A DNA stretch of 63,395 nt, counting the filler. It is 5 parts of 5 records of this genome, joined end to end, with 100 filler letters (N's around TTAATTAATTAA, not from the genome) between each part and the next. Parts side by side here need not be neighbours in the genome. Positions count along the whole stretch, not along the records: positions 1 to 16,427 come from SRR31156797_3255; 4 more parts are not named here. One strand, given 5' to 3'. The notes beneath the pieces are model-generated. The model had not been told where the DNA came from, did not search any database, and saw only the letters and a program-made list of their open reading frames with translations. Shown here one piece after another: positions 2,292 to 18,298 of the stretch. How positions within the stretch are numbered: the stretch's first letter is position 1; each line of letters begins with the position of its first letter. A program made the position numbers and the translations under genes.

Positions 2292-2767
2292 TTTATCAAC
2301 TCCTCTGCTTGGGCAACTGCATCATCAATCTCTAGGTGTCCAACAGTTTTATCATCATATATAGCAATTGGTGCAAGGGAACAGGCACCAACACATCTTG
2401 CACTTATTAAAGATATGAGGTTGTCTTTTGTTGTTTCACCAGCTTTTATTTTAAATCTATTTTCTATTTTTTCAAGTATTTTATTTGCATTTTTAATATA
2501 ACAGGCTGTACCCATACATACAACAATAGTATGTTCCCCTTTTGGTTTTAATCTAAAATAGTGATAAAAAGTTGCCACTCCAAAAACTTTTGAATATGGA
2601 AGTTTTAATCTTCGAGCAATAAATTTAAGGGTTTCATTTTCTAAATAACCAAAACTTTCTTGGGCAATATGTAAAGCTTCAATCAAGGCACTTCTGTCAT
2701 AATTTAACTTCTTCATTGTCTTTTCAACCATTTTGTATCGGGAATCATTGGGAACTGTAGCTATCAA
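2288..2767 (-). CDS. hoxE: HoxE (NuoE-like 2Fe-2S subunit)
   Basis: VATFYHYF, VCMGTACYIK, RCVGACSLAP; TTG start with AAGGA SD. Confidence 0.85.
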   Translation of the reverse strand: MIATVPNDSRYKMVEKTMKKLNYDRSALIEALHIAQESFGYLENETLKFIARRLKLPYSKVFGVATFYHYFRLKPKGEHTIVVCMGTACYIKNANKILEKIENRFKIKAGETTKDNLISLISARCVGACSLAPIAIYDDKTVGHLEIDDAVAQAEELIK

Positions 2768-3003
2768 AATAGATCCTTTGTAGGTTTTTATAATTATAGT
2801 AAGATTTAGTTACAAAATATCACTAATTTGTTTATTTATTATAAAATAACTACTTTAAAAAATAATAAAATAAAGAAGATTATAAAAGTAAGGAATAAAA
2901 TAAAATGAAAATATTATAAGTAAAATTTATATTAAATTAAGTAGTTTTTTAAGTATTTAGGGGTATTATTATTTTGATTAATTTCATGCATATCAAAAGA
3001 GTA

Positions 3004-3231
3004 TCATAAGAGATTTTTATGATACTCTTTTTTTTGTATTCTCAATATTGCGATATCCCAAACAATGTTTATTAATAGTCCTATAATTAGTGCGTATAAA
3101 ACATTAACACCAAAAATATCTCTATTTTTCAAAGTATTTAAAATGATAACACAAAGGGGCATACTCCAAATAAAAAAACTTTGGGCGATATGAATAACAA
3201 CAGGTTTCATTAAAGTAATTGCAGCAGCCAT
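3004..3231 (-). CDS. Small hydrophobic (two-TM) hypothetical protein downstream of c-di-GMP riboswitch
   Basis: 75-aa ORF, strong AAGGAG SD, two hydrophobic segments. Confidence 0.6.
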   Translation of the reverse strand: MAAAITLMKPVVIHIAQSFFIWSMPLCVIILNTLKNRDIFGVNVLYALIIGLLINIVWDIAILRIQKKEYHKNLL

Positions 3232-3280
3232 AATAATCTCCTTTTATAGGAGTCTCTTTGTTTAATTAGAATATTTTAAG

Positions 3281-3352
3281 TGGGTGCAACCCGACTATCT
3301 ACTTGAGACTCGTGGCTTTCCGTCCCTAAATCACTTTAGGTTTGGCAAAATA
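3281..3352 (-). ncRNA. c-di-GMP-I (GEMM) riboswitch
   Basis: Minus strand GCCAAACCTAAA-GTGA-TTTAGGGACGGAAAGCCACGAGTCTCAAGTAGATAGTCGGGTTGCA matches GEMM consensus (P2 with GYRA loop, GGGAC..AAAG junction, P3 ending GGGTTGC); equivalents of G20, A47 and C92 are present. Confidence 0.88.
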
Positions 3353-3417
3353 ATTATAATCTTATCATAAAAAATTATTTTTGTAAAGTAGTTTACTATT
3401 TTAAGGTGAGTATGGAA

Positions 3418-3693
3418 TTATTTTATATATTTTGTATAAAAATAAATGTGAGGACATTTCTCTTTTATAGTTGAGAGTGTAAATTTCATTTTTTCTAGAA
3501 CAAAATTACAACTTTGTATATTTTCTTCTGTGGGATTTGATATTATCAGTCCTGTACAAAGGGCATAGGTATCATTTAATACATCAATTTCATAAGTTAA
3601 AGAATAATATGTAATCAATTCGCCTTTCATCTTATAGTGTAGATAGTTTGATGAAATAATAGTCAGAGCAACAATTGAAAAAATAAAAATCAA
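3418..3693 (-). CDS. Hypothetical membrane-anchored/exported protein with Cys residues
   Basis: 91-aa ORF, N-terminal hydrophobic stretch; start uncertain. Confidence 0.5.
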   Translation of the reverse strand: MIFIFSIVALTIISSNYLHYKMKGELITYYSLTYEIDVLNDTYALCTGLIISNPTEENIQSCNFVLEKMKFTLSTIKEKCPHIYFYTKYIK

Positions 3694-3992
3694 TCCAATT
3701 TTAAATTTTTTGTTTATAACTTACCCTTTAAAATATAATACTTTTAATTTATCAGAAATGTCATAATAAAGTGCTGATTATGAAATAATAGAAAACAATA
3801 ATAATATAAATATTTAAAGACATTAAATAAATAAGAAAATAAAAAAAATTTTGATTTCATATTATTATTTACAATAGAAGTAGATAAATAATAATTGTAT
3901 AGTTTATTTAAACAGTCAATTATTAAATGCAGTTTAATAAAATATTAGCTTCTAATGAGTATAATAATTTTATTTTTTATTAAAGGGCATTT

Positions 3993-5297
3993 ATGGTAAA
4001 ACAATTTTTATTTTCTATTTCTACAGTAGCCATAATTTTTTCAGGGTGTACGCCTGCAAATAATAGAATAGACACTTCTACACTAACTGAATTACAAAAA
4101 CAACAATTATATAAAACATCTTTACACGAGGCAGTAAGGATTAATGATTTAGAAAAAGTTAAAGAGATATTAGCTGAAGGAAAAGATATTAATAGTAAAG
4201 ATAGGTTTGGTTATACCCCTTTACATCTTGCAGCAAGATTTAATCACTATGATATTGCAAACTATTTAATAGAACACGGTGCAGAAGTAAACTCAAAAGA
4301 TAAATATGGAGATTCTGCATTAATAGATACTACAAGAAATGGATATACAAACTTATCTAAACTTCTAATTTGTAATGGAGCAAAAAGGGATATTTTAGAT
4401 AAGTATGGAATGTCTGCATTACATTATGCTTCAAAAGTAAATGATGTTTTAATAGCAAAAATTCTAAGAGCAAAAGATATTGAACCTTTATGTAATAATA
4501 CTGCAAAAAAACAAGTTCAAAACAAAGAACAGTTTTATAATTTAATCACAATAGACGACTATAATGTTATTAATTCAGCTTCACCAAAAATTTGTGGAGA
4601 TATTCTTGATTTAGATGTGAGACAGGTACAAATAACTTTTGATGGAGGAAGAACAGTTACAAATGCAAAGTTAGATGACAAGAGATGGTGTGCAATCCCT
4701 TCTGAAAAAATCAAAAATGGAAATTATAATGTAATGGCCATGGCAATCAACTCTGCTAGACAAAAGGGTTTAGTAAAAGATGACTTAATCATAAAAGTTG
4801 AAAATATGTTGAGTAATACTTTAAAAAAAGAGTTTGAGAATGATTTAGAAAAATGGAATGCACAGTTTGACGAAGAGAGTTTAACAATAAGATTTAAAAA
4901 TCCTTCTGCTTTATTTGAAAGGGGAAGTATAAAAATCCAAGATAGATTTAAAAATATTCTAGATAGTTTTCTTCCAAGATATATAAATATTTTAAAAGAC
5001 TATAAGTCAAAAATATCAAGTGTACATATTGAAGGACACACTTCTTCAAGATATCGTTCAGCTTCAACTGATGAAGAAAAATTTGAGAAAAATAAAGTTC
5101 TTTCTCAAAAAAGAGCAGATTTAATTCTTAAATATCTAAACGAAAATAATGACCCTTTAATCTCAGAAAACTTGAACTTTATAAAAGAAAAATTCATTGC
5201 AATAGGAAAATCTTCTTCTGAACTAATTTACAAAGAAGATGGAAGTGAAGATTATGATTTATCTAGACGAGTTGAATTTAAGATAGAAAGTAAATAA
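3993..5297 (+). CDS. Lipoprotein: ankyrin repeats + Ig-like domain + OmpA/MotB-type peptidoglycan-binding domain
   Basis: Lipobox FSGC; GYTPLHLAA, GMSALHYAS ankyrin motifs; C-terminal IEGHTSS...LSQKRA...SRRVEF. Confidence 0.85.
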   Translation: MVKQFLFSISTVAIIFSGCTPANNRIDTSTLTELQKQQLYKTSLHEAVRINDLEKVKEILAEGKDINSKDRFGYTPLHLAARFNHYDIANYLIEHGAEVNSKDKYGDSALIDTTRNGYTNLSKLLICNGAKRDILDKYGMSALHYASKVNDVLIAKILRAKDIEPLCNNTAKKQVQNKEQFYNLITIDDYNVINSASPKICGDILDLDVRQVQITFDGGRTVTNAKLDDKRWCAIPSEKIKNGNYNVMAMAINSARQKGLVKDDLIIKVENMLSNTLKKEFENDLEKWNAQFDEESLTIRFKNPSALFERGSIKIQDRFKNILDSFLPRYINILKDYKSKISSVHIEGHTSSRYRSASTDEEKFEKNKVLSQKRADLILKYLNENNDPLISENLNFIKEKFIAIGKSSSELIYKEDGSEDYDLSRRVEFKIESK

Positions 5298-5303
5298 ACT
5301 ACT

Positions 5304-8300
5304 GTGGATAAAATTCAAAATATAATAAAAAGTATTAGAGAAGACCTTTGTGGTAATAAAGACTTTTCTCTATCTTTAAAAGATTTTATTGATTATAATC
5401 CAAATATTTCACAAACATATATAACTCTTTTTCAAGAGGGTGTTAAACCTATTAGGTGGGGTTCTAAAAAACAAACTTTAGAAGAGACTATCAAAAGAGA
5501 TATCTATAAACTAAAAAGTCATTCAAGATTTTCCTCTTTTGATGTAGAAGATAATAAAAAGTGTAGAATTCTTTTTGAGATGGTAACTGATGAAAAGCCA
5601 TGCAACATAAGAAACCTAACAAGTATTAAAATGCACTCTTCAAATAGATTTGAACCAGGAGTTACAGGATTAAAGTATACCTATGAAGGCATAACAAGAT
5701 TTTTTATGCCGACAGATGGGTATATCAAATCAATAATGAATGTAAAACAACTATTAAATTTCTTATCTAAACAGTGTGGCATAGCTAAAAAAACAAATCA
5801 AATTAGTGAACGAGCAAACTTGATGCGTAGAGAAGCTATTAAATACACTGCTTTAGAGTCAATTGCATATATAAGTTATGAAAATGAAGCATATAAGTTA
5901 GAAAGAGGATATCCTGTTCCTTTAGAGTTTTCAAAACAAATTGTTGAAGACAAACTTTTTAAAAGTCTTGATTGGCTCATAAATAATATGAATGATGATG
6001 GAAGTTTTTTATACTTTTATGACCCTTATGAAGATTCAGTAGTTGATTATCTTCATCCAGATATGAAAAACCCTTTATATAACAATATTCTAAGACATAG
6101 TGGTGGAACAATATCATTACTTAGAGGATACGAACTAAGTAAAAATAAAATCTATTTAGAAAGTGCAAAAAAATCTATTGATTTTTTTATATCAACTTTT
6201 AAAGAACACACTTATAAAAATGACTATGCTTGTTTCCCATTTTTTAACAAAAAATCAAAACTAGGTGGTGCAGGGATTGGTTTAGTTGCAATGATGCACT
6301 ACTATATTCACACACAAGATGAAAAGTATAGAAAATATTTAGATGGACTAGTAAGACATATCTTAAGTAGAGTTGATGAGCAAGGTGAGATGATAGGTTA
6401 CTACATACATCCAAAATTTAACAATGGAAATCCTATTATTAATCCAAGTGATGAAGTAAAAAAAGAGTTATTTTCTTTTTATTATCCAGGAGAAGCCTTA
6501 TTAGGACTTGCTTTATATTATTTAAATATAAAAAACTTAGATGAAAGCTTAAAAAAAGATATTCTATCAAAAAGTGAAAAAGCATTAGATTTTTTAGTTG
6601 ACGTTCGACCTACAAAGTATAGTTATATGTTTAAGTCTTTGCCTTCAGACGCTTGGCTTATGCAAGCAATAGAAGAATGGGTAAAAGTAGAAGGACTAAA
6701 GAAACAAAGTTATATAGATTTTGTTTTTGATGATACAAAGCAGATGTTAAGACATATGTATAGAGATGAAAATACACTAGATGTAAACAAAGACTACATT
6801 GGTGGTTTTTATTATAACTATGGAGATCATGTATATCATGACGCATCAAGATGTGAAGGTGTTATTAGTGCATACTATTTAGCAAAATATTTAAATGATG
6901 AAGAAAAAGCAAGTTGGATAATGAACAGTATGATGTTAAGTGCAAAAGGTTTAATGAAAACTTTTCACGATGAGAAATCGAACTATTGTCATATAAATCC
7001 TAAAAAAGCATTACATAGCTTTAGGTTTAAACTAACTAGACAATGGGTTAGAGTAGATTCTGTTCAACATGCAGCTTGCTTTTTTTCTAGACTTTTACCA
7101 ATATATTCTGAGTGCGAGAAAGCATTAGAAAATTACTCATTGATTTGTGGAAAATACCAAATATTAGAAGAGATAGATAAAGCAGGTTATAGCACTGTAT
7201 ATAAAGTTGAAGATATATATTCAAAAAAAGTTTATGCTTTAAAACATATAACCCATCCAAGATTTATGCAACTTGTAGAAAATGAACAAAAAGCCTTAGA
7301 AATAGTAAATGAACACTTACCTTTGAAGTTCTATGAAAAACTTGTTTCTGGAGGAAATGTATATTTTCTATTTGATTATGCAAAAGGAAAAAACCTAAAA
7401 AAACAAGTTGAAACAAAGGGTGCTTTTAGCCAAGATGAGGTAGAAAAATTTACTTTTGATATATTAAATACTTTAGAGTTTATAGCAGAGAAAAAACTTT
7501 TACATCTAGATTTAAAACCTGCAAATATTTTAAAGTATAAAGATTCTTATGCTTTGATGGATTGGGGAACTTCTCAAAGGATTTGGGTAAGTAATTCTGT
7601 TCACTTAAAAGGAAACCCTATTTATATAGCTCCTGAATACTATTTTGGAAAAAGAAATATTAAAAGTGAGTTATACTCTTTAGGATGTTCTATATATTTT
7701 CTTTTAGTTGGAAAACATATTTTTGGTTTACGAAAAAGAGATAATCTAGCAAAAAAAGTCTATCTACATCTTTATATAAAACCCGATTTATCGCAAATAA
7801 AATCAAAAAAAATGAGATATTTACTTTATAGACTTTTAGATAAAAACCCTTTTACTAGAGCAAACTTTGATGAAGTTAAACAGATACTAAAAGGTAAATA
7901 TGAAGATTTTGAGTACAAACAAGAAAAGATTTTAATTGACCTAAACGATGAGTATAAACTTTATGAAAGAATGGCAAACGATTCAGTTGCTTTTGCGCAA
8001 AATAAATATGCAAGATATTTTTTAGAAAAAGATAAAAATACTGCAATGTTATGGTTAGAAAAAGCTTCACAAGCTTCATATTCTATTGCACAAAATAAAT
8101 TAGCCTATATATATTTTACAGATAAAAAAGATTTAAATAAATCATTTTATTGGTTTAAAAAAGCAGCATTAGATGAACACGATATGGCATTGTATTATAT
8201 GGGTGTTTTTTATGAAAATGGGTATGTTGTTGAAAAAAATAAAGATATAGCAATCAAATACTATAAAAGCTCTGCAAATAAAGGTTATATACCTGCTTAT

Positions 8301-8342
8301 GAAAGATTGAATCAATTAGGAATTTATAATGAGTTCTTCTAA
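5304..8342 (+). CDS. Four-domain protein: AMMECR1-like + (alpha/alpha) toroid + Hanks-type Ser/Thr kinase + Sel1 repeats
   Basis: FEPGVTGL..FFMPTD (AMMECR1-like); DGSFLYFYDP..YNNILRHSG..KLGGAGIGL..YYPGEALLGL..RVDSVQH (toroid); ALKH, HLDLKPANIL, DWG, YIAPE (kinase); WFKKAA, YYMGVFYENGYVVEKN (Sel1). GTG start. Confidence 0.75.
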   Translation: MDKIQNIIKSIREDLCGNKDFSLSLKDFIDYNPNISQTYITLFQEGVKPIRWGSKKQTLEETIKRDIYKLKSHSRFSSFDVEDNKKCRILFEMVTDEKPCNIRNLTSIKMHSSNRFEPGVTGLKYTYEGITRFFMPTDGYIKSIMNVKQLLNFLSKQCGIAKKTNQISERANLMRREAIKYTALESIAYISYENEAYKLERGYPVPLEFSKQIVEDKLFKSLDWLINNMNDDGSFLYFYDPYEDSVVDYLHPDMKNPLYNNILRHSGGTISLLRGYELSKNKIYLESAKKSIDFFISTFKEHTYKNDYACFPFFNKKSKLGGAGIGLVAMMHYYIHTQDEKYRKYLDGLVRHILSRVDEQGEMIGYYIHPKFNNGNPIINPSDEVKKELFSFYYPGEALLGLALYYLNIKNLDESLKKDILSKSEKALDFLVDVRPTKYSYMFKSLPSDAWLMQAIEEWVKVEGLKKQSYIDFVFDDTKQMLRHMYRDENTLDVNKDYIGGFYYNYGDHVYHDASRCEGVISAYYLAKYLNDEEKASWIMNSMMLSAKGLMKTFHDEKSNYCHINPKKALHSFRFKLTRQWVRVDSVQHAACFFSRLLPIYSECEKALENYSLICGKYQILEEIDKAGYSTVYKVEDIYSKKVYALKHITHPRFMQLVENEQKALEIVNEHLPLKFYEKLVSGGNVYFLFDYAKGKNLKKQVETKGAFSQDEVEKFTFDILNTLEFIAEKKLLHLDLKPANILKYKDSYALMDWGTSQRIWVSNSVHLKGNPIYIAPEYYFGKRNIKSELYSLGCSIYFLLVGKHIFGLRKRDNLAKKVYLHLYIKPDLSQIKSKKMRYLLYRLLDKNPFTRANFDEVKQILKGKYEDFEYKQEKILIDLNDEYKLYERMANDSVAFAQNKYARYFLEKDKNTAMLWLEKASQASYSIAQNKLAYIYFTDKKDLNKSFYWFKKAALDEHDMALYYMGVFYENGYVVEKNKDIAIKYYKSSANKGYIPAYERLNQLGIYNEFF

Positions 8343-10707
8343 TTTAACTTTTACATTAAAAGAGATGGAGTCACTTGTAAATGGAAAATGGATAAATCTG
8401 TCCCCCAATCTTTTAATAAACGATTTTGTTCACATACTAAGTCAAGTGAAACAAGGTGATATTTTTGTTGTATCTTATGAATCTTGGTACAATAAAAAAA
8501 ACAGTAATGAAGACGAAATCCCACAAGCAATAAAAAATGGTGCAAGTGCATTATTCGTTGAAGAGCAAACAGATATCTCAAATATCAATATTCCTGTATT
8601 TGTAGTAAAAAACAGTTATGAAGCTTTGAAAAAGTTAGCAAAACACTCTTCTTTGAACTCAAAAGCAAAAAAACTTTTAATAACAGGAAGTTACGGTAAA
8701 ACAGGTTTTAAAAATCATCTTTATACTCTAAGTAATCAAAAAAACATATATGCAAGACTTCATAGTTCTAATAGATTTGCAACAACTTTATGCACTTTAG
8801 TTTCTATAAAAAAAGACACAAAACTTTTTTTAATAGAAGTTCCAATTAGAAGAAAAGATAGAATTCAAAAAAGCTCAAAGTATATTAAACCCAATATGTG
8901 TGTTATCACATCAATTGGACATGAACATATAGAGATACATGGTTCAATAGAAGAGATAATAAGACAAAAATGTTTAGTTGCAAGTAGCTTAAAAGAGGGT
9001 GAAAAAGTTATAATTCCAGGAGATTCTGAGTATACAAAACTTTTAAAAAAAGAGTTGAAAAAATATAAAGGAATAGTAGTTTTAACTTTTGGTGAAAGTG
9101 AAAATTGCAATGCTCAAATCCTTAACAAATATTTTATAGATAACAAATGGGTAATAACTGCAAGAATTGAGTTTGAGATTATTCAGTATGAAGTTCATTT
9201 TGTAGAAGAGCATGCACCTTCAAGTTCTGTTGCAGAACTATTGTGTTTAAAACACATGGGAGAAGATATTTATTCTTGTGCAAATAAATTTATTAAGTGT
9301 AAAAACTATAAAAGTAGTGGAAAACTATACAAAATAGAGTATAAAAACAAAGAGTTACTTCTTTATGACCAAAGCTCTAGAGGTGGAGTTGAAGGTTATA
9401 AATCTTTTTTTAAAACTATAAGAAGACTAGACTTTAAAAAAAACAGTAGAAAAATTGTTTTAAGTTCAGAGTTTGTTGATTTAAAAGATGGAGAGGATAA
9501 GTTTTTAGATATTCAAAGATTCCAAGAGTTGATTACAAAAGCAGAAATAACTCAATTTTATGGAGTTGAAAACTTTAATCATCATGAAGAAGTTATTAGT
9601 GATAAAACCATATATAAAGGTAATTACCCAAATCCAAATGAACTAGCAGAGAGTTTTTTTGATACTTTAAAAGATGGAGATATTATTTGTATAAAAGGTA
9701 TCTTTGAAAGTAATATTAACAAAGTAGTAAAAAAGCTTTTATCTAGTAGTAAACCTTTACCACGATATTTAATAAAAGAGTTTGATACTAACACTTTAAA
9801 AGGGTGTGAGGTTTTAAGTATAAAACATAAAGAGCTTTTTAAAACCTATTTAAAAGAAAAAAAAGTAGCTTTATGGTGTCAGTTTTTCCCTTTCTTATTC
9901 TCTTTTTCAAAATCAAAATCTAAAAAAATCTTAGTAAAAAAAGATGAAAGTTCACTAAGTGTTTTTTACCTAAGAAATATTAATAAAGCAGAAAAAATCT
10001 CTTTACAATTGTTTTTTATCCCTTTTCCTTTTAATTTTGAAGTATTAAAAAAGAGTTTAAATATAGTAAAACAATTTAATAAACAATCCCAAGTTACAGT
10101 AACTTGGTTAGATGATGAAGATATTTCAAATATAAAAAAACATAAAGAGTTTGCAGAAAATATTGAGTTTATACAAAAAGAGTATGAGTTTATTTTTGAT
10201 TCATCGTTATATTATAATCTTGCAGGTGGAAAATTAAGAAGTTTAAGGCAGCAAATAAATTGGGTAAATAGATTAGAAGATGTTAAAATTGTACCTTATA
10301 AAAAAGAATATTTAGATGATGCCTTAAAACTATATGACAAATGGAAAAAGTTTCAAGAAGATAAATATGATTTAATAACAGATGAAAATTATACTAAAAA
10401 TGCATTGTTTTTTTATGAAAGCTTTAAAGATGAATTAAAAGGTTTAGTTGTTTTAATAAAAGGTGAATTAAAAGCTTTTGGTTTTTATGGAAATATAAAT
10501 GAAACTACAATAAATATGTTTATTGCAAAGAGTGATTTAGAAATAAAAGGTTTACAACAGTTCTTAAAATACAATATTTTGTTGAATTCAAAAGATTTAA
10601 TTGTAAATGATGGAAGTGCAGAAAGTCAAGGTTTGTTTGATTCTAAAAAGAAATTAAATCCACTTTTTTTAAAAAAAGTTTATAAAGCAAGATATAATTT
10701 TATTTAA
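8329..10707 (+). CDS. MurF-like Mur ligase fused to DUF2156 (aminoacyl-tRNA-dependent transferase/LPG-synthase C-terminal-like) domain
   Basis: ITGSYGKT P-loop, VITSIGHEHIE, DIICIKG; C-terminal YEFIFD..LAGGKLRSLRQQIN..KGLQQFL..GLFDSKKKLNP. Confidence 0.75.
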   Translation: MSSSNLTFTLKEMESLVNGKWINLSPNLLINDFVHILSQVKQGDIFVVSYESWYNKKNSNEDEIPQAIKNGASALFVEEQTDISNINIPVFVVKNSYEALKKLAKHSSLNSKAKKLLITGSYGKTGFKNHLYTLSNQKNIYARLHSSNRFATTLCTLVSIKKDTKLFLIEVPIRRKDRIQKSSKYIKPNMCVITSIGHEHIEIHGSIEEIIRQKCLVASSLKEGEKVIIPGDSEYTKLLKKELKKYKGIVVLTFGESENCNAQILNKYFIDNKWVITARIEFEIIQYEVHFVEEHAPSSSVAELLCLKHMGEDIYSCANKFIKCKNYKSSGKLYKIEYKNKELLLYDQSSRGGVEGYKSFFKTIRRLDFKKNSRKIVLSSEFVDLKDGEDKFLDIQRFQELITKAEITQFYGVENFNHHEEVISDKTIYKGNYPNPNELAESFFDTLKDGDIICIKGIFESNINKVVKKLLSSSKPLPRYLIKEFDTNTLKGCEVLSIKHKELFKTYLKEKKVALWCQFFPFLFSFSKSKSKKILVKKDESSLSVFYLRNINKAEKISLQLFFIPFPFNFEVLKKSLNIVKQFNKQSQVTVTWLDDEDISNIKKHKEFAENIEFIQKEYEFIFDSSLYYNLAGGKLRSLRQQINWVNRLEDVKIVPYKKEYLDDALKLYDKWKKFQEDKYDLITDENYTKNALFFYESFKDELKGLVVLIKGELKAFGFYGNINETTINMFIAKSDLEIKGLQQFLKYNILLNSKDLIVNDGSAESQGLFDSKKKLNPLFLKKVYKARYNFI

Positions 10708-10751
10708 AGAGATAAATGATAAAGTTATTATTTTAAAATGAAAGGCATAAA

Positions 10752-11771
10752 ATGAGTAATCTATTTTCAAATATTTTAAAAAGTAAGTTTTTATTACTAA
10801 GTATCTTTTTTATTTTTAATCTTTATGGAAATATTGAAGTAAAACTAAACAAGTTAACTGCTACTATCATATTTACAGAGTCTTTGATGGATAAAGCAGG
10901 AAGACCTAAAGAGTTAAAAAAGATATATCTCGAAAGTTATAAAGATGACAATAGATTAAAAAATATTTTAAGAGAAACAAAACCCTTATACAAGAAATTA
11001 AGAGTATCAAAAATCTATAATCACCCAAAAACAGAAAGACTTTTTTCTGCAATTATGATAGAAAGTACATTTACAAATGATATAAATACTTTAGAATCAA
11101 AAATATTAAGTTATAAACTAGCTGTCTCTTCAAAAATGATAAAAAACTATTTCTCTATGCTTAAAGAGTTTGCACCTATTTATGATGAGTTAATTTGGAA
11201 ACCAAATTATCAAAAACTTTCAGAAGCAAAAGCACAAATAGAAGGTTTGATTGAGCAATTAAAAAAATCAAATGTACAAAGAAAAGTAGAAAACTTCTAT
11301 CATATAAAAGAGGGTGAAGCAAGACCTTTTTATGTAAATCTTTATCCTATTCCAAATGCAAAAGGTTTTAAAGCTTTAAGAATAGAAAATACTGCACCAG
11401 TTGGAATCATAATAAACAACAAAAAACTAAACTTAAAATGGTTTTTTAGTGCAGTAATTTTCCACGAGCAATGTCATGAGTATTTTGCACAATATAAAGA
11501 AAACATTAGACAAATGATTAAAAAAAATAAAAAATCAAGTGCAAAAGCATTTTTTAGAACTTTTGATGAAAGCTTACAAACTTCTATAGGTGCAGGATAT
11601 ACATATTATACATTGAGAGGAAAACTTTCTAAAGGTAAATGGTATAATAATAAAGTATATGATAACTTAGCAAAACGAATTCTACGAGAAGTAAGTATTT
11701 ATCTAAATAATAATAAACAAATTGATGAAGAATTTATTAAAAAAACAATTCAAGAATATAAGAAAATTTAA
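10752..11771 (+). CDS. Exported putative zinc metallopeptidase (HEXXH)
   Basis: Signal-like N-terminus; IFHEQCHEYF followed by FDESLQTSIG (possible third-ligand Glu). Confidence 0.55.
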   Translation: MSNLFSNILKSKFLLLSIFFIFNLYGNIEVKLNKLTATIIFTESLMDKAGRPKELKKIYLESYKDDNRLKNILRETKPLYKKLRVSKIYNHPKTERLFSAIMIESTFTNDINTLESKILSYKLAVSSKMIKNYFSMLKEFAPIYDELIWKPNYQKLSEAKAQIEGLIEQLKKSNVQRKVENFYHIKEGEARPFYVNLYPIPNAKGFKALRIENTAPVGIIINNKKLNLKWFFSAVIFHEQCHEYFAQYKENIRQMIKKNKKSSAKAFFRTFDESLQTSIGAGYTYYTLRGKLSKGKWYNNKVYDNLAKRILREVSIYLNNNKQIDEEFIKKTIQEYKKI

Positions 11772-11780
11772 AGGGCAAAA

Positions 11781-13676
11781 ATGAAGCAAACTTTAGAAAA
11801 TATATCAGTTGTAATACCTTGTTATCCACCTGATATAAAGAGTTTAAAAGAGAACTCTATTCCATCATTTAAAAACTCAACTTATAATCCTTTGGAGATT
11901 ATTGTAGCTTTAAGTGAAACAAATGATGAAGATGCCTTAAATTTAGAAAATGAGTTAAATAAACTATACGATTTTAAAATCAAAATATCAAATACCCCAG
12001 AACAAAAATATGCAGGTGAAAATAGAAACAGAGGGGCAGAAATCTCACAAGGTGAGATAATTGTATTTTTTGATTCTGATGATGAAATACATCCTCAAAA
12101 GTTAGAAATCACTGATTATATATTTAAAAAGTATAAACCTAAAATGTTTATGCACCATTGGCAAGGGTATTCAAGAAGATACCAAGAATATGATAAAGAG
12201 AATTTAGAGATAGTAACTTCTGATACTTTGAGTGAATTCACTTATGGAAAAAATGAAAACCCAAAGTGGATATTTGTAGATACTTATGCAAAAAGTGAAT
12301 GGGGACAAAACAAAAGTCATCCTCACCATGGACATGTTGCAATAGAAAGATCTGTTTTTGATGAGATTCAATACACTAACAAAAAAAGAGGTCAAGATGT
12401 TGAGTTTTGTCTAAAAGTTCTTAAAAAATACAATAACACAGTTTTTGCAAATGTAAAACTTGTAAACTATATCATGGACGATAGTAAAAAGATTTTAGAG
12501 CCAATTGTAAAATGGTGGGAAGATGACTATAAAGTTGAAGTAACTGAAATAAAAAATGACCCAAATCATAAGTATGCAATCTTAATGTTAGATGCCTTTA
12601 CTGATGAAAACTATAAACAATACAACGAATATAACTCTTTACTGTCAAAGGCAAGTGCTGATGAAGTATGGTCTTACTATCCAGTTATGGGCAAAAAATA
12701 TAAAGCAGATGATAAACTAGTTAGAAAAGCAAGTGTTATTGAGCCTTATTTACTTTATGAATACTTTAGAGACAACAATATCAAGCATAAAATTTGGTAC
12801 AAAAACTCACTTTTTATTTTAAATGATTCATTATATAGAATCACAAATTATAAGGTTTATAAAGAGGATTTAACAAACCTAAATATAGCTTGTTTAAGAG
12901 AGAGTTGGTCTCATCCATTTTTTGGATTTTTAGAGATAATTTTAGAAAAAGCAAACGGTAAGTTATGTAAACCAAATATGGGAACATTGAGAAATGCTGG
13001 ATGTATGAACAAACTTTATGGTTTAAGGGAGTTATATTCAAAAAGAGATGAATATATACAAGATATTGTAATTCCTTACAATATAGCTCCATATCAATAT
13101 GATGTTTTTTTATCTTTTTTAAGAGATTATTTTGGAAAAGAGTTAGTTTTCAAGATTGATTGTATCCAAGAAGGGCGTGGAGTTATTTTCAAAAACATAG
13201 AAAAGTCACTTCAACTAGATAAAATTGGACCAATTTTAGATAAACAAGGTCAAAAATCAAAAGAGATTTTTATAACACCAGCATTTACTATAGCTGAAGA
13301 GTTTAGGTGTTATTTCACAAAAGATAAACAAAATAATGTAACTGTTTATTCCATAAAACAAAGAAACAACAAATCATCAAAAGAGGAACTTTTCAAAACA
13401 GATAACATCCATATTTATAAAAACATTGATGTTTCATGGAGAGAGATTAAGTTTGGTAGTGATGATTTTATAAAAGCTTCAAATATAGCAAAAGATATGG
13501 TTTCTATGATGACTTATACATCAGGAAGTATTGAGTTTGGTATAACAAAAGAGGGCAAAATTGTATTCTTTGAAGTGAATCAAATGGCAGGACCTTTACC
13601 ATTTGTTGGTGAAGATTTAAAAAATATGAATAAATACTATAAAGCAATTTTTGATCAAATGTTTGAAGATGCATGA
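11781..13676 (+). CDS. GT2 glycosyltransferase fused to C-terminal RimK-like ATP-grasp domain
   Basis: ISVVIPCY, NRNRG, FFDSDD, GQDVEF (GT2); LVFK..QEGRGV..EEFRCY..IEFG..FFEVNQMAG (ATP-grasp). Confidence 0.75.
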   Translation: MKQTLENISVVIPCYPPDIKSLKENSIPSFKNSTYNPLEIIVALSETNDEDALNLENELNKLYDFKIKISNTPEQKYAGENRNRGAEISQGEIIVFFDSDDEIHPQKLEITDYIFKKYKPKMFMHHWQGYSRRYQEYDKENLEIVTSDTLSEFTYGKNENPKWIFVDTYAKSEWGQNKSHPHHGHVAIERSVFDEIQYTNKKRGQDVEFCLKVLKKYNNTVFANVKLVNYIMDDSKKILEPIVKWWEDDYKVEVTEIKNDPNHKYAILMLDAFTDENYKQYNEYNSLLSKASADEVWSYYPVMGKKYKADDKLVRKASVIEPYLLYEYFRDNNIKHKIWYKNSLFILNDSLYRITNYKVYKEDLTNLNIACLRESWSHPFFGFLEIILEKANGKLCKPNMGTLRNAGCMNKLYGLRELYSKRDEYIQDIVIPYNIAPYQYDVFLSFLRDYFGKELVFKIDCIQEGRGVIFKNIEKSLQLDKIGPILDKQGQKSKEIFITPAFTIAEEFRCYFTKDKQNNVTVYSIKQRNNKSSKEELFKTDNIHIYKNIDVSWREIKFGSDDFIKASNIAKDMVSMMTYTSGSIEFGITKEGKIVFFEVNQMAGPLPFVGEDLKNMNKYYKAIFDQMFEDA

Positions 13677-13688
13677 AGGGTGAGTGAG

Positions 13689-15548
13689 ATGGAAGAAACG
13701 ATTTTTATACAAATAGCAAGCTACAGGGATCCAGAGTGTAGAAATACAGTAAAAGATATTTATGAAAAAGCACAAAATCCTGAGAATATTTTTATTGGTA
13801 TTAATTGGCAATACCATGAAGATGATGACTTTGATGCAATATATGAAGACCAACCATATTCTAAAAATGTAAGAATAGCAAGATTTCATTGTACTGAGTC
13901 AAAAGGTGTTTGTTGGGCAAGAGCTGAAACTCAAAAACTATATAAAGACGAGAAATACACTTTACAACTTGATTCACATATGATATTTATCAATAATTGG
14001 GATATAGAACTACTTGCAATGTATAAACAGTTACTTGATAAAGGTATTGAAAAACCAGTTATTTCTCACTATCCACCAAACTATACTTTAGACGGAAAGT
14101 TTGATAACTGGCAAGGTAAAATGGCTCCTTATATTAGAGAGAGTGAAAAGATTATCTATTTTAAATTAACAGGTTACCAAATCAAACAAGATAATTCTCC
14201 TTTGATACCTTCTGCTTGTATTGCAGGGGGAATGTTTTTTGCCGATGCAAGTTGTATAAAAGAGATTCCTTATGACCCAAATATCTATTTTTATGGAGAA
14301 GAGATAACTTTAAGTACAAGATTTTGGACACATGGTTGGGATATTTATAACCCTTCAAAAATTGTATTATGGCATCTTTTTAAATCAGAAGAAAAAAATG
14401 GTACAAAAATAGAAACAAGAAAAATAGATACTCACTGGTACGACCAGCCAGATGAATATGAAAGATTAAATCAGCGTTCTATAAAGAGAACAAGACACTT
14501 TTTTGGTACAGAATTTAGTAACGACAAAGGTGTAACTATTGATTTAGATAAATATAAATTAGGAACAAAAAGAACACTTCATCAATATGAACTTTTTGCA
14601 GGTGTAGATTTTTATCAGTTAGAAAGAACACAGTTTGCATCTTCAGGGATTGTATTTGAAAACAAAGAAGAGAACAAAACTGCATATAAACAAGAAAATG
14701 AATCTTTTTATGAGATAAAAAAATATGATAAAGATAGCATAAAATCAGTTTATGATTTCATCTCTAAGTTAGATATAAAAAAAGTTGCAAGCCTAATTTC
14801 GTATGGGTATGATAACTTTGTAAATATCTACAACAAAGATATTGAATATATTGGGCTTGATTTGTTTGAAAATAATTGTGAACAAAATAGATATTTCTAT
14901 AGACATATAAAAAATGTTTATCATTCTCAAGTAAACTTTTTCAAAGAACCATTGCCTTGTGTTGATTTACTTTTAGCGGTAGATTTATTTGAAAAAATAG
15001 ATAAATATGAGATATCAAAAATTCTTTTAAGTGCTTCAAAATCTGGGATAAAATATGTTGCAACAAGTTTAAATAAAGATGATAAAAAGCTTGATTCTCT
15101 TCCAAATACTTGTTTTTCTATCCCTTTTACAGATAAAAAGGTTTTAAATTTCTGGAATATTGAAGATTTAAAAATTTATTTTTACTATTTAACAGGAAAA
15201 GAAGATTCTTTGAGAAAACAAATTATTCCTGTTTTGAAAAAGCAATTAAAAATTGTTGAAGAGAGTATGAAAGGATTAGAAAAAGATTACAAAAATATTA
15301 TTTTTTATATTTTTAGTTTAAGAAACTCTAAAGAAGCAAGAAAAATATACAATAAACCTGAAGTTCAAGAAAAATTATTATTTGATATGTCAAAGGGAAA
15401 AAATAGTATTAATTATATTTTCAACCTAAGATATTTCTCAAATCTTGATATTATAAATCGAGATTTTCCTTCAATAAAAAAAGAGGATTCAGATTTCGTT
15501 ACATCCCTAATTTGCGAATATTTACGAATTTATTATAAAAGTTTGTAG
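13689..15548 (+). CDS. GT60/'GlcNAc' family (Skp1 Gnt1-like) protein GlcNAc transferase with degenerate SAM-methyltransferase-like C-terminal domain
   Basis: IFIQIASYRDPEC, SKGVCWAR, LQLDSHMIF, PYDPNIYFYGEEI..RFWTHGWDIYNP; C-terminal YIGLDL..VDLLLAVDLF. Alternative GTG start at 13680. Confidence 0.8.
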   Translation: MEETIFIQIASYRDPECRNTVKDIYEKAQNPENIFIGINWQYHEDDDFDAIYEDQPYSKNVRIARFHCTESKGVCWARAETQKLYKDEKYTLQLDSHMIFINNWDIELLAMYKQLLDKGIEKPVISHYPPNYTLDGKFDNWQGKMAPYIRESEKIIYFKLTGYQIKQDNSPLIPSACIAGGMFFADASCIKEIPYDPNIYFYGEEITLSTRFWTHGWDIYNPSKIVLWHLFKSEEKNGTKIETRKIDTHWYDQPDEYERLNQRSIKRTRHFFGTEFSNDKGVTIDLDKYKLGTKRTLHQYELFAGVDFYQLERTQFASSGIVFENKEENKTAYKQENESFYEIKKYDKDSIKSVYDFISKLDIKKVASLISYGYDNFVNIYNKDIEYIGLDLFENNCEQNRYFYRHIKNVYHSQVNFFKEPLPCVDLLLAVDLFEKIDKYEISKILLSASKSGIKYVATSLNKDDKKLDSLPNTCFSIPFTDKKVLNFWNIEDLKIYFYYLTGKEDSLRKQIIPVLKKQLKIVEESMKGLEKDYKNIIFYIFSLRNSKEARKIYNKPEVQEKLLFDMSKGKNSINYIFNLRYFSNLDIINRDFPSIKKEDSDFVTSLICEYLRIYYKSL

Positions 15549-15550
15549 TG

Positions 15551-15569
15551 GAAACTTTATAGAAACTTT
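15551..15569 (+). promoter_or_regulatory. Tandem GAAACTTT direct repeat with 11-bp period upstream of adhesin gene (OmpR/PhoB-type box candidate)
   Basis: GAAACTTT-ATA-GAAACTTT at 15551 and 15562. Confidence 0.4.
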
Positions 15570-15614
15570 TTTTATATATAGTTAAGCTATAGGAATATAC
15601 TTAAAGGCTTAACT

Positions 15615-16427
15615 ATGACACTTATAATCAGACACATTAACGGCGAGATAGAAGAATTAAATGTTACAGGAAATATGGAGATTAAACCTCTTGAAGGGGA
15701 ACAACTATATTTTTTAGGTGCAGATAAATATTCGTTTTCATTAGCAGATGGCGAAGAAACAATCAAACTTAATTTAGTAGAGGGTACACAAAGATTTGAA
15801 ATAACTCTTGACCAGATGGCAGAGTTAATTAAAAACAATAAACCTGATGATATTTTTGCCTTAAATACTGCACTTGGTGTGTCTGCCACAGTTGACGGTG
15901 AAAAAGAGATTATGGATGCTGTTAATAATCCTGACTTCGAAAGTGGAGAGATTATTAATGCATTAAAAGAGAGTCTAGCTTTAAGTACTTTGGCTGATAT
16001 GGATGGGTCAATCATAGATAATTTTGGGTCTTTAGCAGAATATTTAGAGGCTGCAGCAGCTGGTGAAGAGTCAAGTGATGGGTCTTTGTTTATTGAAGAA
16101 GATAGAAATCAAGAGGTAACACCTGCAGAGGAGACTGAGAGAAGCGAAAGAATTGAAACAGAAGAAGATTCAACTACAACAGAAGATACCACGACTACAG
16201 AAGATACCGAAACTACAGAGGATACTGAAACTCCTGAAGATACAGAAACTATAGAAGATACTACTACTGATGAAGATACTACAACTTCTGAAGATACAAG
16301 TTCAGATGAAGATACATCAACAACAGAAGATACAAGCTCTGACGAAGACACAGAAACAATAGAAGATACAGAAACAACTGAAGATACAAGTTCAGATGAA
16401 GATACAGGTACGACTGAAGATACAAGC
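15615..16427 (+). CDS. N-terminal part of a LapA-like/T1SS adhesin (retention region + acidic Thr-rich repeats), truncated by contig end
   Basis: No signal peptide; LEAAAAG resembles the di-alanine LapG cleavage motif; followed by an acidic linker and EDTxxx repeats. Confidence 0.65.
16164..16427 (+). repeat. 18-bp/6-aa tandem repeat (EDTxxx), 14 full units plus a partial one, running into contig end
   Basis: EDSTTT EDTTTT EDTETT EDTETP EDTETI EDTTTD EDTTTS EDTSSD EDTSTT EDTSSD EDTETI EDTETT EDTSSD EDTGTT EDTS. Confidence 0.95.
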
Positions 16428-16527
16428 NNNNNNNNNNNNNNNNNNNNNNNNNNNNNNNNNNNNNNNNNNNNTTAATTAATTAANNNNNNNNNNNNNNNNN
16501 NNNNNNNNNNNNNNNNNNNNNNNNNNN
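16428..16527. other. Artificial contig linker
   Basis: N44-TTAATTAATTAA-N44 (stops in all six frames); composition changes across it. Confidence 0.98.
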
Positions 16528-16971
16528 CGACATTAAATACTTTCTTTTTAGGGTAGCTATGATTTTTGCTTAAAAAATAGAAATCCCCCAGATTTTGGAA
16601 GTGATCCAATTTATTTTCTGGTTAATGTTAAAAGCCGGAATTCTGTTGTAGGCATTTTATCCTTATATATGAATTAGGAAATGAATTCACAATAAATTAT
16701 TATCTTAAAACCTCATGCTCATATTTTATATCTAACTTATGCTCTCTTTTGAATTTCATTCAACCAAAACTTTTCTATACCTGGAAGTGGAGTATATGAT
16801 TATATTTTATGGTAAGTTAGCTTACTAACTGGAGTAAAGACGAAGAGAATACTTATTCTTGCAAGAATAAGTTGAGTTGATGAATATTTCTAAACTTTTT
16901 TTCAAAGTGTAAATTGCTGAAATAGAAAAGATAAACAACTTTGTTAAAGAAAATAATTATTTTTTTGATTG

Positions 16972-17078
16972 AAAGGGTAGGGTAGAAGTTACTTTATCTG
17001 TATTATAATTGTTTTCAGGCAGAGGCCGAAGACTAGAAACAGTTTGGTTAGAATCCGCCCTGTTGGGCGGATTTTTTT
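16972..17078 (+). ncRNA. Candidate Bacteroidota small RNA with AGGCCGAAGAC core and intrinsic terminator
   Basis: TGTATTATAATTGTTTTCAG-GCAGAGGCCGAAGA-CTAGAAACAGTT stem, then AATCCGCCC-TGTT-GGGCGGATTTTTTT terminator; no CDS ends just upstream on this strand. Confidence 0.5.
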
Positions 17079-17225
17079 AGAAAATGTTCCGCAGACAAGC
17101 AACTTTAACAACTCTTAATACATCTTAAGAATTGTTAGGTGGGGTTTTGGGACATTTAGCTGTATTAGTTATAAATTGCGGCTTCGTTTGAGCTGCAAAG
17201 ACAAAAAAACGAATACCTCAAAAGA

Positions 17226-17951
17226 ATGAATTGTATTATACTGGAAAGAACACATACGCAAAGCACTTTAAGGGAAATGATTAATATGGTACCGTATTTT
17301 AATCTGGTATCGTATTGTTCATCCGTTTTTGATGCATATGAGATACTAAGACGAGAAGAAATAGATATCATTTTTGTTGATACAGCTTTGCCAAAGGTTT
17401 CAGGTATCGATTTTATTAAGAGTCTTGAACATAAGCCGCAGTTTGTGTTTATTTCAGATGTAGCTGAACTGGCAGTGGAGGCATTTAATTTAAATGCCCT
17501 GGATTTTCTTTTAAAACCACTTCGTTTTGATCGGTTTCTAAAAACTGCTAATAAGGCCTACGAAGCTCAATCGTACGTGGAGAAAAAAGCTTTACCTATT
17601 AACGAATCAGAACAGCAAGATGTAAACAATAAAAATATTTTGGTTAAAACCGATTATAAAACAATTTTGATAAAATTGAACCACATTCTGTACATCGAGG
17701 GACTAAAAGATTATATTAAAATTTACACTTCGGAGAATACAAAACCTGTTATCACTTTAAATTCATTAAAGAAACTACAACAAAATCTTCCATCTGATAA
17801 ATTTTCCCGTATACATAAATCGTACATTGTGGGATTAGACCACATTCATGCGATAAATAAAACACAGGTAATGATTCAGGAAAAATATATTCCTATTGGG
17901 GAAAGTTACCGAAATGTATTCAGTCAGAAAATTGAAGAACTTCGTATCTGA
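17226..17951 (+). CDS. LytTR-family response regulator
   Basis: Receiver (IIFVD..P..SGIDF, DFLLKP) + LytTR (ILYIEGLKDYIKI, FSRIHKSYIV, IPIGESYR). Confidence 0.92.
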   Translation: MNCIILERTHTQSTLREMINMVPYFNLVSYCSSVFDAYEILRREEIDIIFVDTALPKVSGIDFIKSLEHKPQFVFISDVAELAVEAFNLNALDFLLKPLRFDRFLKTANKAYEAQSYVEKKALPINESEQQDVNNKNILVKTDYKTILIKLNHILYIEGLKDYIKIYTSENTKPVITLNSLKKLQQNLPSDKFSRIHKSYIVGLDHIHAINKTQVMIQEKYIPIGESYRNVFSQKIEELRI

Positions 17952-17991
17952 TTTGCTAAAAGTTCGTTTATAAATAACTAATAGGCATATT

Positions 17992-18040
17992 AAAAATCCA
18001 ACCAGGACAAAAAGAAAACTTTTGTATTGGTTGGATTTTT
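17992..18040. terminator. Inverted repeat, likely intrinsic terminator after LytTR gene
   Basis: AAAAATCCAACCA...TGGTTGGATTTTT. Confidence 0.7.
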
Positions 18041-18298
18041 AATTTTTCAGTTGATGGTTAAAATCCCGCAAATTGGTCTGATGGATTTCCTTCTGTAGGG
18101 AAGGCAGTTAGGTTTATTGCTGCAACTTTTTTGTCTCGCGACTTATGTCTTTTTCTTTGTTCATTTATGAATTCCCTTTCTGCCCGACAGAGACAGGTAG
18201 GCATTTAACTTTAAACTGATGTGCTACCAGTGCATTTAGGTTGAGTTGTGTCAGTCAGTAAGGATTCACAGTCTAAAGTGTAAGAGTGCAACTACGCT

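Follow-up and report, generated by a model that had tools for sequence, protein, structure and literature searches.

A seven-gene cluster leading into an acidic repeat protein: a candidate adhesin-tailoring locus with an AMMECR1-like/toroid module

The subject of this work is a cluster of seven genes (g1 to g7) in a 63,395-nucleotide stretch of DNA, referred to below as the window; the last gene, g7, encodes a truncated secreted-type protein with Thr-, Glu- and Asp-rich repeats. The seven genes are probably the local version of a conserved system for producing and modifying a polyanionic repeat protein and for secreting it by a type I secretion system (T1SS). A functional link between the cluster and the repeat protein is predicted with good confidence, and covalent modification of the repeats is predicted by a slight preference. 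On the comparisons given below, the conserved partner of the repeats appears to be the 600-aa N-terminal module of g2 (N600), an AMMECR1-like part followed by a toroid, and glycosylation an add-on in this organism. The cassette lies entirely within the first piece of the window (1–16427) and consists of seven open reading frames (ORFs) on the + strand at 3993–16427, with gaps of 6, −14, 44, 9, 3 and 66 nt:

3993–5297, + strand: g1, 434 aa, ankyrin-Ig-OmpA lipoprotein (signal ...IFSGC) with a ZorB/MotB-type OmpA peptidoglycan-binding domain
5304–8342, + strand: g2, 1012 aa, made up of the two parts that follow
5304–7133, + strand: N600 of g2, AMMECR1-like (about residues 1–200) plus (α/α)6 toroid (about residues 206–610)
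7155–8342, + strand: C-terminal part of g2, Hanks-type Ser/Thr kinase (HLDLKPAN, DWG), then Sel1 repeats
8329–10707, + strand: g3, 792 aa, fusion of a Mur-ligase-like part (P-loop GSYGKT) with DUF2156/LPG_synthase_C
10752–11771, + strand: g4, 339 aa, exported or membrane-anchored protein with a hydrophobic N-terminus and HEQCH at residues 238–242
11781–13676, + strand: g5, 631 aa, glycosyltransferase family 2 (GT2; DSD at 98; Glycos_transf_2, 9e-15) fused to an ATP-grasp
13680–15548, + strand: g6, 622 aa, glycosyltransferase family 60 (GT60; PF11397), degenerate methyltransferase-like domain and helical tail
15615–16427, + strand: g7, 271 aa, then N (contig end), including the two parts that follow
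15615–16109, + strand: N-module of g7 with AAAAG (nt 16050–16064), shared with giant secreted proteins of related bacteria
16155–16427, + strand: repeat region of g7, (E-D-T-x-x-T)n with an 18-nt period (TRF period 18, 7.5–10.7 copies)

These coordinates and gaps agree with the original prediction, made from the sequence alone, of co-oriented, tightly spaced genes leading into a signal-less g7, and its domain calls were right almost domain for domain in Pfam and fold checks. Of the doubtful domains, the AMMECR1-like/toroid region of g2 and the ATP-grasp of g5 are upheld by fold, whereas the peptidase proposed for g4 is reduced to an HEQCH motif. Catalytic motifs are retained in the kinase, the Mur ligase, GT2 and GT60. 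No terminator-like site was found in the intergenic gaps of the cassette by a promoter and terminator scan, which was uninformative for promoters (72 promoter-like sites against 84.7 expected). The contig stops at 16427 and truncates the g7 frame, a common outcome with repeats.

The g7 protein starts with neither a hydrophobic N-terminus nor a signal peptide. Its 165-aa N-module ends in ...NFGSLAEYLEAAAAG, with AAAAG at residues 146–150, and the 91 residues of the repeats include 36 T (40%), 22 E (24%), 19 D (21%) and 10 S. The N-module shares 55–57% identity with the starts of two open frames, one of 2577 aa in genome G001 and one of 1420 aa in G002 (2563 and 1402 aa from the first start). 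In the G001 orthologue, the first 170 residues, ending ...NFGSLAEALDAAAAG, are 57% identical to g7; about 2000 residues of (TD)n and (SD)n lie past the N-module, and RTX-like GxGDDTIN motifs are recognisable by eye near the C-terminus, although the protein has no Pfam match. The orthologues in G001, G002 and G070 have 42–57% N-module identity and share ...FGSL..AL.AAAAG followed by (TD)n/(SD)n, and in the clusters of these genomes they are flanked by type I secretion genes, namely those for an outer-membrane efflux protein (OEP), a C39-type ATP-binding cassette (ABC) exporter and HlyD.

Relatives of g1–g3 thus occur in clusters that end in a g7 orthologue and T1SS genes, which bears out the cassette–adhesin link proposed in the original prediction. 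Orthologues of g1 head the clusters L001 and L004 (two Halarcobacter loci). Downstream in the Halarcobacter locus are a PGA_cap gene and then the 2563-aa g7 orthologue, followed by a two-component pair, OEP, the C39-type ABC exporter, HlyD and a second ankyrin-OmpA lipoprotein; the layout in a second Halarcobacter genome is identical to the first. Homologous cassettes were found tied to the repeat protein rather than to lipopolysaccharide, capsule or peptidoglycan loci.

The association was also followed at the genome level in one sample of 401 Campylobacterota genomes, where N600 was called at E ≤ 1e-5 and acidic arrays were sought with the DNA pattern (WSNGAY)x8, equivalent to (T/S-D)8. N600 is present in six of the genomes (G001, G003, G070, G258, G398 and G399), and the pattern occurs in exactly these six (17–903 matches each) and in none of the other 395; a reversed-pattern control gave 1, 3 and 10 matches in three genomes. 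The Fisher p of 1.8e-13 assumes independence, and as the genomes are related, its real weight is less. This co-occurrence supports the link between cassette and repeat protein. The N-module itself is found in 9 of the 401 genomes, heading open frames of up to 7812 aa. In a set of 14 N-module proteins, which takes in the window and G002, all four that lie beside an N600 cluster run directly into acidic low-complexity repeats, while the ten with no N600 nearby all have ordinary, non-low-complexity repeats of about 100 aa, as judged by reading the sequences (Fisher p 0.001 for N600 adjacency against acidic repeats). AAAAG is present in 10 of the 14 and ASAAG, ATAAG or TAAS in the other four.

The smallest version of the system is seen in G258 and G398, where an ABC exporter, HlyD and a 434-aa TD-rich protein are followed by N600; some 350 bp separate the TD array from N600, which follows it on the same strand, and the TD-rich protein combines a weak LapA-type N-terminus with a TAAG site. 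Mur-ligase clusters of Methylobacter (L005), Oceanospirillum (L016) and Sulfurimonas (L012) likewise have neighbouring genes for TD/SD/DA-rich proteins in which a LapA-like N-terminus and TAAG are present, and LapG-like peptidase C93 genes are present in 5/5 related genomes. Clear arrays were seen in eight of the nine N600-bearing genomes examined. N600 implies long arrays; short arrays also occur without it. Short (SD)n/(TD)n arrays, with 1–15 matches each, were noted in some 20 gammaproteobacterial genomes without N600 at E ≤ 1e-20, including G440, G465, G475, G478, G529, G563 and G571.

Relatives of g3 mark 19 loci in Halarcobacter, Sulfurimonas, Sulfurovum, Methylobacter/Methylococcaceae, Oceanospirillum and a Geobacteraceae metagenome-assembled genome. 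N600 is encoded in 12 of them, on its own (about 610 aa) or as part of a fusion with a kinase or a Mur ligase, and in Halarcobacter and Sulfurimonas it is far more conserved (67–76% identity) than g3 (35–41%). The clusters also contain further Mur ligases, RimK/YheCD-type ATP-grasps, Fic-like proteins, a pair of NTP-transferase and aminotransferase genes, and GNAT or DUF2156 domains; N600 is directly preceded by an ABC exporter, HlyD and LuxR in the five Sulfurimonas loci. The order in G070 is OEP, ABC, HlyD, N600, ATP-grasps, a 1523-aa ATP-grasp/Fic/Mur-ligase fusion, a full aminoethylphosphonate set and, where the contig ends, a (TD)n protein that has the g7 N-module. The phosphonate set comprises a cytidylyltransferase-PEP (phosphoenolpyruvate) mutase, phosphonopyruvate decarboxylase (Ppd), an NTP-transferase and a class V aminotransferase, and phosphonate decoration in this lineage is possible:

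L126 (G070:C15:36000-55999), 15302–19536: 2-aminoethylphosphonate set inside the N600/ATP-grasp/Mur-ligase cluster

The N600 family has 1880 representatives (at 50% identity) at E ≤ 1e-3, and no characterised family name was found for the module among the 22 members scanned. Invariant residues of the module are H251, R264-H265, K317/K319, E397, D449, D513, R516, E518 and R574-H589. Its resemblance to AMMECR1 is by fold alone, with no Pfam AMMECR1 match in g2. The AMMECR1 hallmarks given in an excerpt of PMC2034487 are the RGChG and DxRa motifs with a conserved cysteine; RGC.G is absent from g2, whose closest approach to it is IRWGS at residue 50. A weak AMMECR1 match (2.9e-5) was obtained for a single distant member of the family (P0252). 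The modelled toroid resembles sugar epimerases and the glycoside hydrolase families GH76 and GH88. The labels LanC-like, GH127 and GH88 were considered for the toroid and no family was assigned, the matches being weak and confined to distant relatives. LANC_like matches are absent from g2 and weak in distant relatives (3e-4 to 4.5e-4), and it is the kinase part of g2 that matches the LanL model. Pfam finds Pkinase (3e-31, residues 618–860) and Sel1 (1.6e-12) in g2. Elsewhere in the family N600 is fused to a kinase, a Mur ligase, GT4, PGA_cap or YheCD/TTL-type ATP-grasps, and these fusions point to a single pathway.

The g3 protein, which has 27 close relatives, among them one of 42% identity in Halarcobacter bivalviorum (P0001), was originally described as MurF-like. 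It belongs to the Mur-ligase superfamily and keeps the P-loop, but is not MurF (TIGR01143, 121.7 against 288.6 bits). Mur_ligase_M (1.7e-19) is the one Mur domain detected, Mur_ligase_C giving no Pfam match. LPG_synthase_C/DUF2156 matches residues 612–756 (7.2e-10, 38.8 bits against a cut-off of 27.5) and is predicted to be of the aminoacyl-tRNA transferase type.

The resemblance of g7 to LapA is one of architecture. The di-alanine AAAAG site and the overall layout are LapA-like, as originally proposed, whereas the N-terminus goes unmatched by the retention-module model NF033682: no match was found for residues 1–165 of g7 at E ≤ 5 or for the N-terminus of the G001 orthologue at E ≤ 0.1, with an adhesin of locus L037 as positive control (86.7 bits, cut-off 50). 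BLASTP between g7 and the L037 adhesin was not significant, and the likeness is architectural only. The g7 N-module belongs to a separate family found on giant proteins, distinct from the LapA retention module. SD arrays score against the ClfB and SdrD models through composition alone.

To our knowledge, GT60 enzymes have so far been known only from protists, and those characterised act on proteins. Protists have a hydroxyproline-GlcNAc pathway, in which Gnt1 acts on a hydroxyproline of Skp1, and Trypanosoma cruzi has mucin-type GT60. The g6 protein matches PF11397 over its GT60 part (2.3e-63, 215.2 bits against a cut-off of 21) and has the metal-binding D-x-H motif (D98-S-H100), with D98 and H100 invariant in 17 sequences. 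Its methyltransferase-like part has lost the glycine-rich motif I DAGCGD that shorter relatives keep. Many bacterial GT60 proteins are fused to prolyl-hydroxylase-type 2-oxoglutarate oxygenases (PF13640, PF13661), which echoes the protist pathway. In g5, the Pfam evidence for the ATP-grasp is below threshold (R2K_2, E 0.0044, 17.3 bits, cut-off 26.2), and a search of PDB sequences with the C-terminus gave nothing meaningful; the structural model of this part (pLDDT 78) has an ATP-grasp fold, with 459 Foldseek matches at E ≤ 1e-3 (Ddl, RimK, synapsin). ATP-grasp enzymes fill the top of the list at modest TM scores (0.35–0.54), and RimK is found at rank 7 (7qys_L, E 1.8e-7) and rank 10 (5zct_A).

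Dedicated glycosylation as the core of the cassette, as first proposed, did not hold up: GT60 was found in none of the five genomes holding the g3 cluster, which indicates that glycosylation is not the conserved function, g4–g7 lack relatives in the 19 loci, and GT2 and GT60 are accessory. Four observations nevertheless show that GT60 is no stray neighbour. First, the high-GC metagenome contig L030 combines N600, a kinase-Sel1 protein, an HExxH protein, a long-form GT60 (32% identical to g6 over 577 aa, E 2e-108) and a second HExxH protein. Second, the closest relatives of g5 (56%, full-length) and g6 (50%) come from one 31-kb contig, under consecutive accession numbers (MFK5985947/48). Third, GT4 is found fused to N600. 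Fourth, Thr-rich low-complexity proteins are encoded within two genes of GT60 in 16 of 75 metagenomic GT60 loci; Thr-rich ORFs make up 19/226 near GT60, 7/354 farther away and 3/323 in control loci (p 3.7e-4, uncorrected for relatedness). For example, in L032 a (TEAAT)n protein of more than 1731 aa is encoded directly upstream of a GT60-methyltransferase, and in L037 a GT60-methyltransferase lies beside a retention-module adhesin (NF033682) with TAAG and (APTE)n, together with LuxR, HlyD and an ABC exporter. The L037 adhesin is a genuine member of the LapA type and has type I secretion genes of its own, which supports the adhesin link of the original prediction.

Two further observations concern bacterial GT60. 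Genes for proteins that consist nearly throughout of Thr/Pro-rich repeats (TPI, TPA, TPV, TPE, TPD) are immediately followed by short-form GT60 genes (about 415 aa), in some cases two in tandem, in the metagenome loci L055, L057, L065, L066, L072, L074, L075, L079, L085, L089, L091, L102 and L104; such a couple looks like a bacterial or viral mucin-like glycosylation pair. In addition, an unusual ORF adjoins HDOD, HlyD, ABC and OEP-SPOR genes, and may be either a rearranged remnant or a regulator made from an enzyme fragment:

L031, 9944–10747, + strand: 267-aa ORF, N-terminal half of GT60 (62% identical to g6) plus a LuxR-type GerE domain

A mechanism can be proposed as follows. The g7 protein would be made in the cytoplasm and exported by a T1SS encoded past the contig end, as for its orthologues; the N-module and AAAAG would allow it to be held in the outer-membrane channel and later set free by a LapG-type protease. 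Before export or while it proceeds, the acidic repeats, still unfolded, would be acted on by cytoplasmic enzymes. GT60 would place a hexosamine on Thr hydroxyls, a proposal based on the analogy with protist GT60 and on the Thr-rich neighbours of bacterial GT60; O-glycosylation of g7 Thr by GT60 is by this analogy a serious candidate, held with a little less than even confidence. This sugar would be lengthened by the GT2 domain; Thr phosphorylation by the kinase is also possible. Amino acids would be attached in amide linkage by the Mur-type ligase, the ATP-grasp and DUF2156, with Asp/Glu side chains or the added groups as acceptors, a step modelled on the Mur-like domain of cyanophycin synthetase that loads Arg on Asp; addition of amino acids to Asp/Glu is put forward only tentatively. 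N600, being the sole universal partner and having a sugar-enzyme-like pocket, would perform or guide the core step by binding or editing repeats or adducts. The ankyrin-Ig-OmpA lipoprotein would anchor either the adhesin or the secretion machinery to peptidoglycan, and the exported g4 protein may process the product. In other lineages, the accessory chemistry would be replaced by more ligases, Fic, PGA_cap or aminoethylphosphonate. An extended form of the proposal, which we consider possible but rather doubtful, is that amino acids or short peptides, together with sugars or aminoethylphosphonate in some lineages, are grafted onto a secreted (Ser/Thr-Asp/Glu)n backbone made by the ribosome, so that the Gram-negative surface would carry a branched polyanionic "protein-polymer hybrid"; the grafting would be done by Mur-type, ATP-grasp and tRNA-dependent ligases arranged around the AMMECR1-like/toroid core enzyme.

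Several points weigh against the proposal that the cluster tailors g7. All of its chemical steps (O-GlcNAc on Thr, amino acids on Asp/Glu, phosphorylation) are inferred. T1SS substrates pass a narrow channel unfolded, and bulky adducts might block export. Because the contig ends, neither T1SS genes nor the g7 C-terminus are seen in the window, and no relatives of g4–g7 were found in the 19 loci (BLASTP, E < 1e-5; best E with phmmer --max, 0.012). GT60 is present in only 3 of the 401 Campylobacterota genomes, two matches being strong but covering the catalytic half only, and was not detected in the five genomes with a g3 cluster mentioned above. The related genomes are not phylogenetically independent. 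G005 has N600 and only four matches to the x6 pattern, compared with 12 for the reversed control, so its array is doubtful. Outside Campylobacterota the converse of the co-occurrence breaks down: of 181 genomes in the order of G004, 22 have x8 matches, while N600 at E ≤ 1e-20 is confined to G004; the other matching genomes have 1–26 matches against 96 in G004, and some x8 matches consist of TGGGAT or TGCGAC units, which do not encode S/T-D. Finally, the clusters contain polymer-type genes (PGA_cap, NTP-transferase, aminotransferase, aminoethylphosphonate genes and the ABC-2 exporter of L008), and the N600 toroid resembles carbohydrate enzymes.

The last two points bear most directly on the alternative that survives best, although we consider it unlikely: the enzymes would build a separate product, such as a murein-like precursor, a poly-amino-acid or a glycopolymer bearing peptides or phosphonate, for which the acidic repeat protein, itself unmodified, would be the extracellular matrix partner or anchor. 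The clusters with PGA_cap (CapA-type), Mur-type ligases, NTP-transferase plus aminotransferase and PEP mutase plus Ppd would suit such a product, as would the L008 ABC-2 exporter and a toroid like those of sugar epimerases, GH76 and GH88. However, N600 in G258 and G398 is accompanied by the TD-repeat and T1SS genes without polymer-synthesis genes in the locus, and no polymerase, flippase or priming glycosyltransferase was noticed in the Pfam tables of the window genes and of the related loci scanned, in which no search was aimed at them. Moreover, low-complexity repeats are found only in those N-module proteins that lie beside the cluster, which fits a substrate better than a partner, and the protein substrates of characterised GT60 enzymes argue in the same direction.

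According to a second alternative, which is improbable, the repeat protein is a giant precursor, comparable to a multi-core ribosomal natural product, whose tailored repeats are cut by HExxH proteins into small acidic peptides exported by ABC/HlyD. A conserved HExxH family of about 320 aa (alignment A5), with invariant HExxH, a downstream Glu and a signal-like N-terminus, is indeed encoded in 16 of the 19 g3-related loci (L001–L019) and in L030, and has weak matches to the MXAN_6640 metalloprotease:

L001, 9024–9989: example of HExxH family A5, ten relatives

The HExxH motif of g4, the C39-like domain of the ABC exporters and the resemblance at the domain level of the g2 kinase to the kinases of class IV lanthipeptide synthetases are also consistent with peptide production. 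On the other hand, the adhesin-type N-module, the di-alanine site and the RTX-like C-terminal motifs fit a whole surface protein, no lyase or cyclase was detected, and the HExxH proteins start with hydrophobic signal-like segments, so that they would act after export. Membership of g4 in the A5 family was rejected (hhalign probability 0.2%, BLASTP not significant); g4 has no family match in Pfam, NCBIfam or PADLOC, and its Atlas matches are unnamed clusters with a weak DUF4932 lead. The A5 HExxH domain was also seen within proteins of about 1100 aa with a "Receptor L domain" match.

Least probable of all is a chance juxtaposition of two unrelated modules, or an anti-phage or signalling cassette, for although PADLOC reports ZorB2 at the C-terminus of g1 (residues 268–432, 5.6e-51) and the mad6 and PD-T4-6 kinase models in g2, and GT2 and GT60 are not conserved with g1–g3, these PADLOC matches are single-domain, g3–g7 match no defence model, several genera have these genes together with TD-repeat proteins and T1SS genes, and GT60 recurs with N600 in L030. 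A defence system was accordingly rejected, the matches covering single domains only, and so was a Zorya system: only the peptidoglycan-binding part of ZorB2 matches g1, and other Zorya models match none of the seven proteins.

The C-terminal domain of g1 is closest to the peptidoglycan-binding part of ZorB/MotB. Pfam finds Ank_2 (5e-39) and OmpA (3.7e-9) in the protein, and its Ig-like stretch is weak (Big_13, 24.7 bits, below the cut-off of 27). T1SS tethering to peptidoglycan seems to be built into the systems considered here. In Halarcobacter, the ankyrin-Ig-OmpA lipoprotein is encoded twice per cluster, at the start and right after HlyD, the second copy being found in this position in G001 and G002; in Sulfurimonas, the outer-membrane efflux protein itself is fused to TSP3 repeats and OmpA (L113, 16967–19513). 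The lipoproteins with a ZorB2-like domain are:

L108, 16071–17429: ankyrin-Ig-OmpA lipoprotein
L115, 5384–6739: ankyrin-Ig-OmpA lipoprotein
window, 3993–5297: ankyrin-Ig-OmpA lipoprotein (g1)

Among known systems, the cassette is nearest in function to Gram-positive adhesin-tailoring loci and in chemistry to cyanophycin synthetase and polyglutamylases, and is a member of none of them. Staphylococcal SdgA/SdgB glycosylate the Ser-Asp repeats of Clf/Sdr adhesins, and serine-rich-repeat loci combine GtfA/GtfB with an accessory Sec system. As in these loci, cytoplasmic enzymes are encoded beside a Ser/Thr-rich or (S-D)n surface protein; unlike in them, the hosts are Gram-negative, export is by T1SS, the glycosyltransferases are GT60 and GT2 instead of GT4-type, and there are an AMMECR1-like/toroid partner and Mur-type, ATP-grasp and DUF2156 ligases, which the SdgA/SdgB and GtfA/GtfB loci lack. 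The plug-like N-module, the AAG site at about residue 110–150, the long repeats and the T1SS genes beside the orthologues recall LapA/LapG/LapD, but the g7 N-module is unrecognised by NF033682 and the repeats are a low-complexity polyanion and not Ig-like domains; we know of no tailoring enzymes for LapA. The g6 protein is like protist GT60 in its PF11397 match (215 bits), its D-x-H motif and the Thr-rich candidate acceptor encoded next door, and differs in being bacterial and fused to a degenerate methyltransferase-like domain. With CapB/CapA of poly-gamma-glutamate synthesis, the related clusters share PGA_cap and Mur-ligase-family genes, both fused to N600 elsewhere, whereas the window has no PGA_cap, no CapC was noticed, and the link of the clusters is to a repeat protein and a T1SS.

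As in the cyanophycin synthetase CphA1 and in protein polyglutamylases (RimK, TTLL; PMC9427784 and PMC9262961, excerpts), ATP-grasp and Mur-type domains would form amide bonds on an acidic polypeptide. The Asp side chains of cyanophycin carry Arg. Unlike for CphA1, the backbone would be ribosomal and secreted, and g3 has no detectable Mur_ligase_C and is fused to DUF2156. No description of the system was found in full-text searches, with most subscription journals and supplements outside their scope; the nearest printed remark is one sentence in an excerpt of a survey of phosphonate gene clusters (PMC8942020).

The remainder of the window does not serve as context for the cassette. The window is not one piece of DNA: at least five contigs are chained by four N44-TTAATTAATTAA-N44 linkers:

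16428–16527: artificial joint
25368–25467: artificial joint
38044–38143: artificial joint
54352–54451: artificial joint

GC content is about 0.24–0.29 up to base 16000, then 0.31–0.39, 0.47–0.51, 0.50–0.585 and about 0.50 in the successive pieces, with a step from about 0.27 to 0.31–0.39 at the first joint (16428–16527). The other pieces carry genes for LytTR, DUF4270 and Kelch proteins, an RTX protein, and GH43/GH42 with AraC regulators. By GC and gene content, the pieces look like different organisms, and the DNA past 16427 is therefore unusable as context. The RTX protein (1452 aa, 29049–33407, + strand), on a 47% GC piece unrelated to the cassette contig, has eight stretches of calcium-binding repeats (HemolysinCabind, 1.8e-59). 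Upstream of the cassette on the opposite strand (2–2767, − strand) lie NuoE-, NuoF- and NuoG-like genes, matching 2Fe-2S thioredoxin-like, Complex1_51K and Fer2_4/NADH-G. Synteny between Halarcobacter and the window begins only at g1, the upstream gene in Halarcobacter being IlvD.

The cluster is probably an adhesin-tailoring locus, and there is a fair chance that its protein chemistry is entirely new. If the repeats are tailored, the cluster would be the first reported case of machinery dedicated to modifying a type I-secreted adhesin, and a family of about 1900 uncharacterised AMMECR1-like/toroid proteins would gain a first cellular role; the substrate of Mur-ligase, ATP-grasp and DUF2156 enzymes would then be a protein instead of murein precursors or lipids, and bacterial GT60 would gain a testable substrate in the adjacent Thr-rich protein. 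Should the protein-polymer hybrid exist, the action of Mur-ligase-family enzymes on a protein would be a class of post-translational modification without described precedent. Even if the enzymes make a separate polymer, the core gene and the polyanionic secreted repeat proteins, which occur together in Halarcobacter, Sulfurimonas, Methylobacter and Oceanospirillum, would define a new extracellular system.

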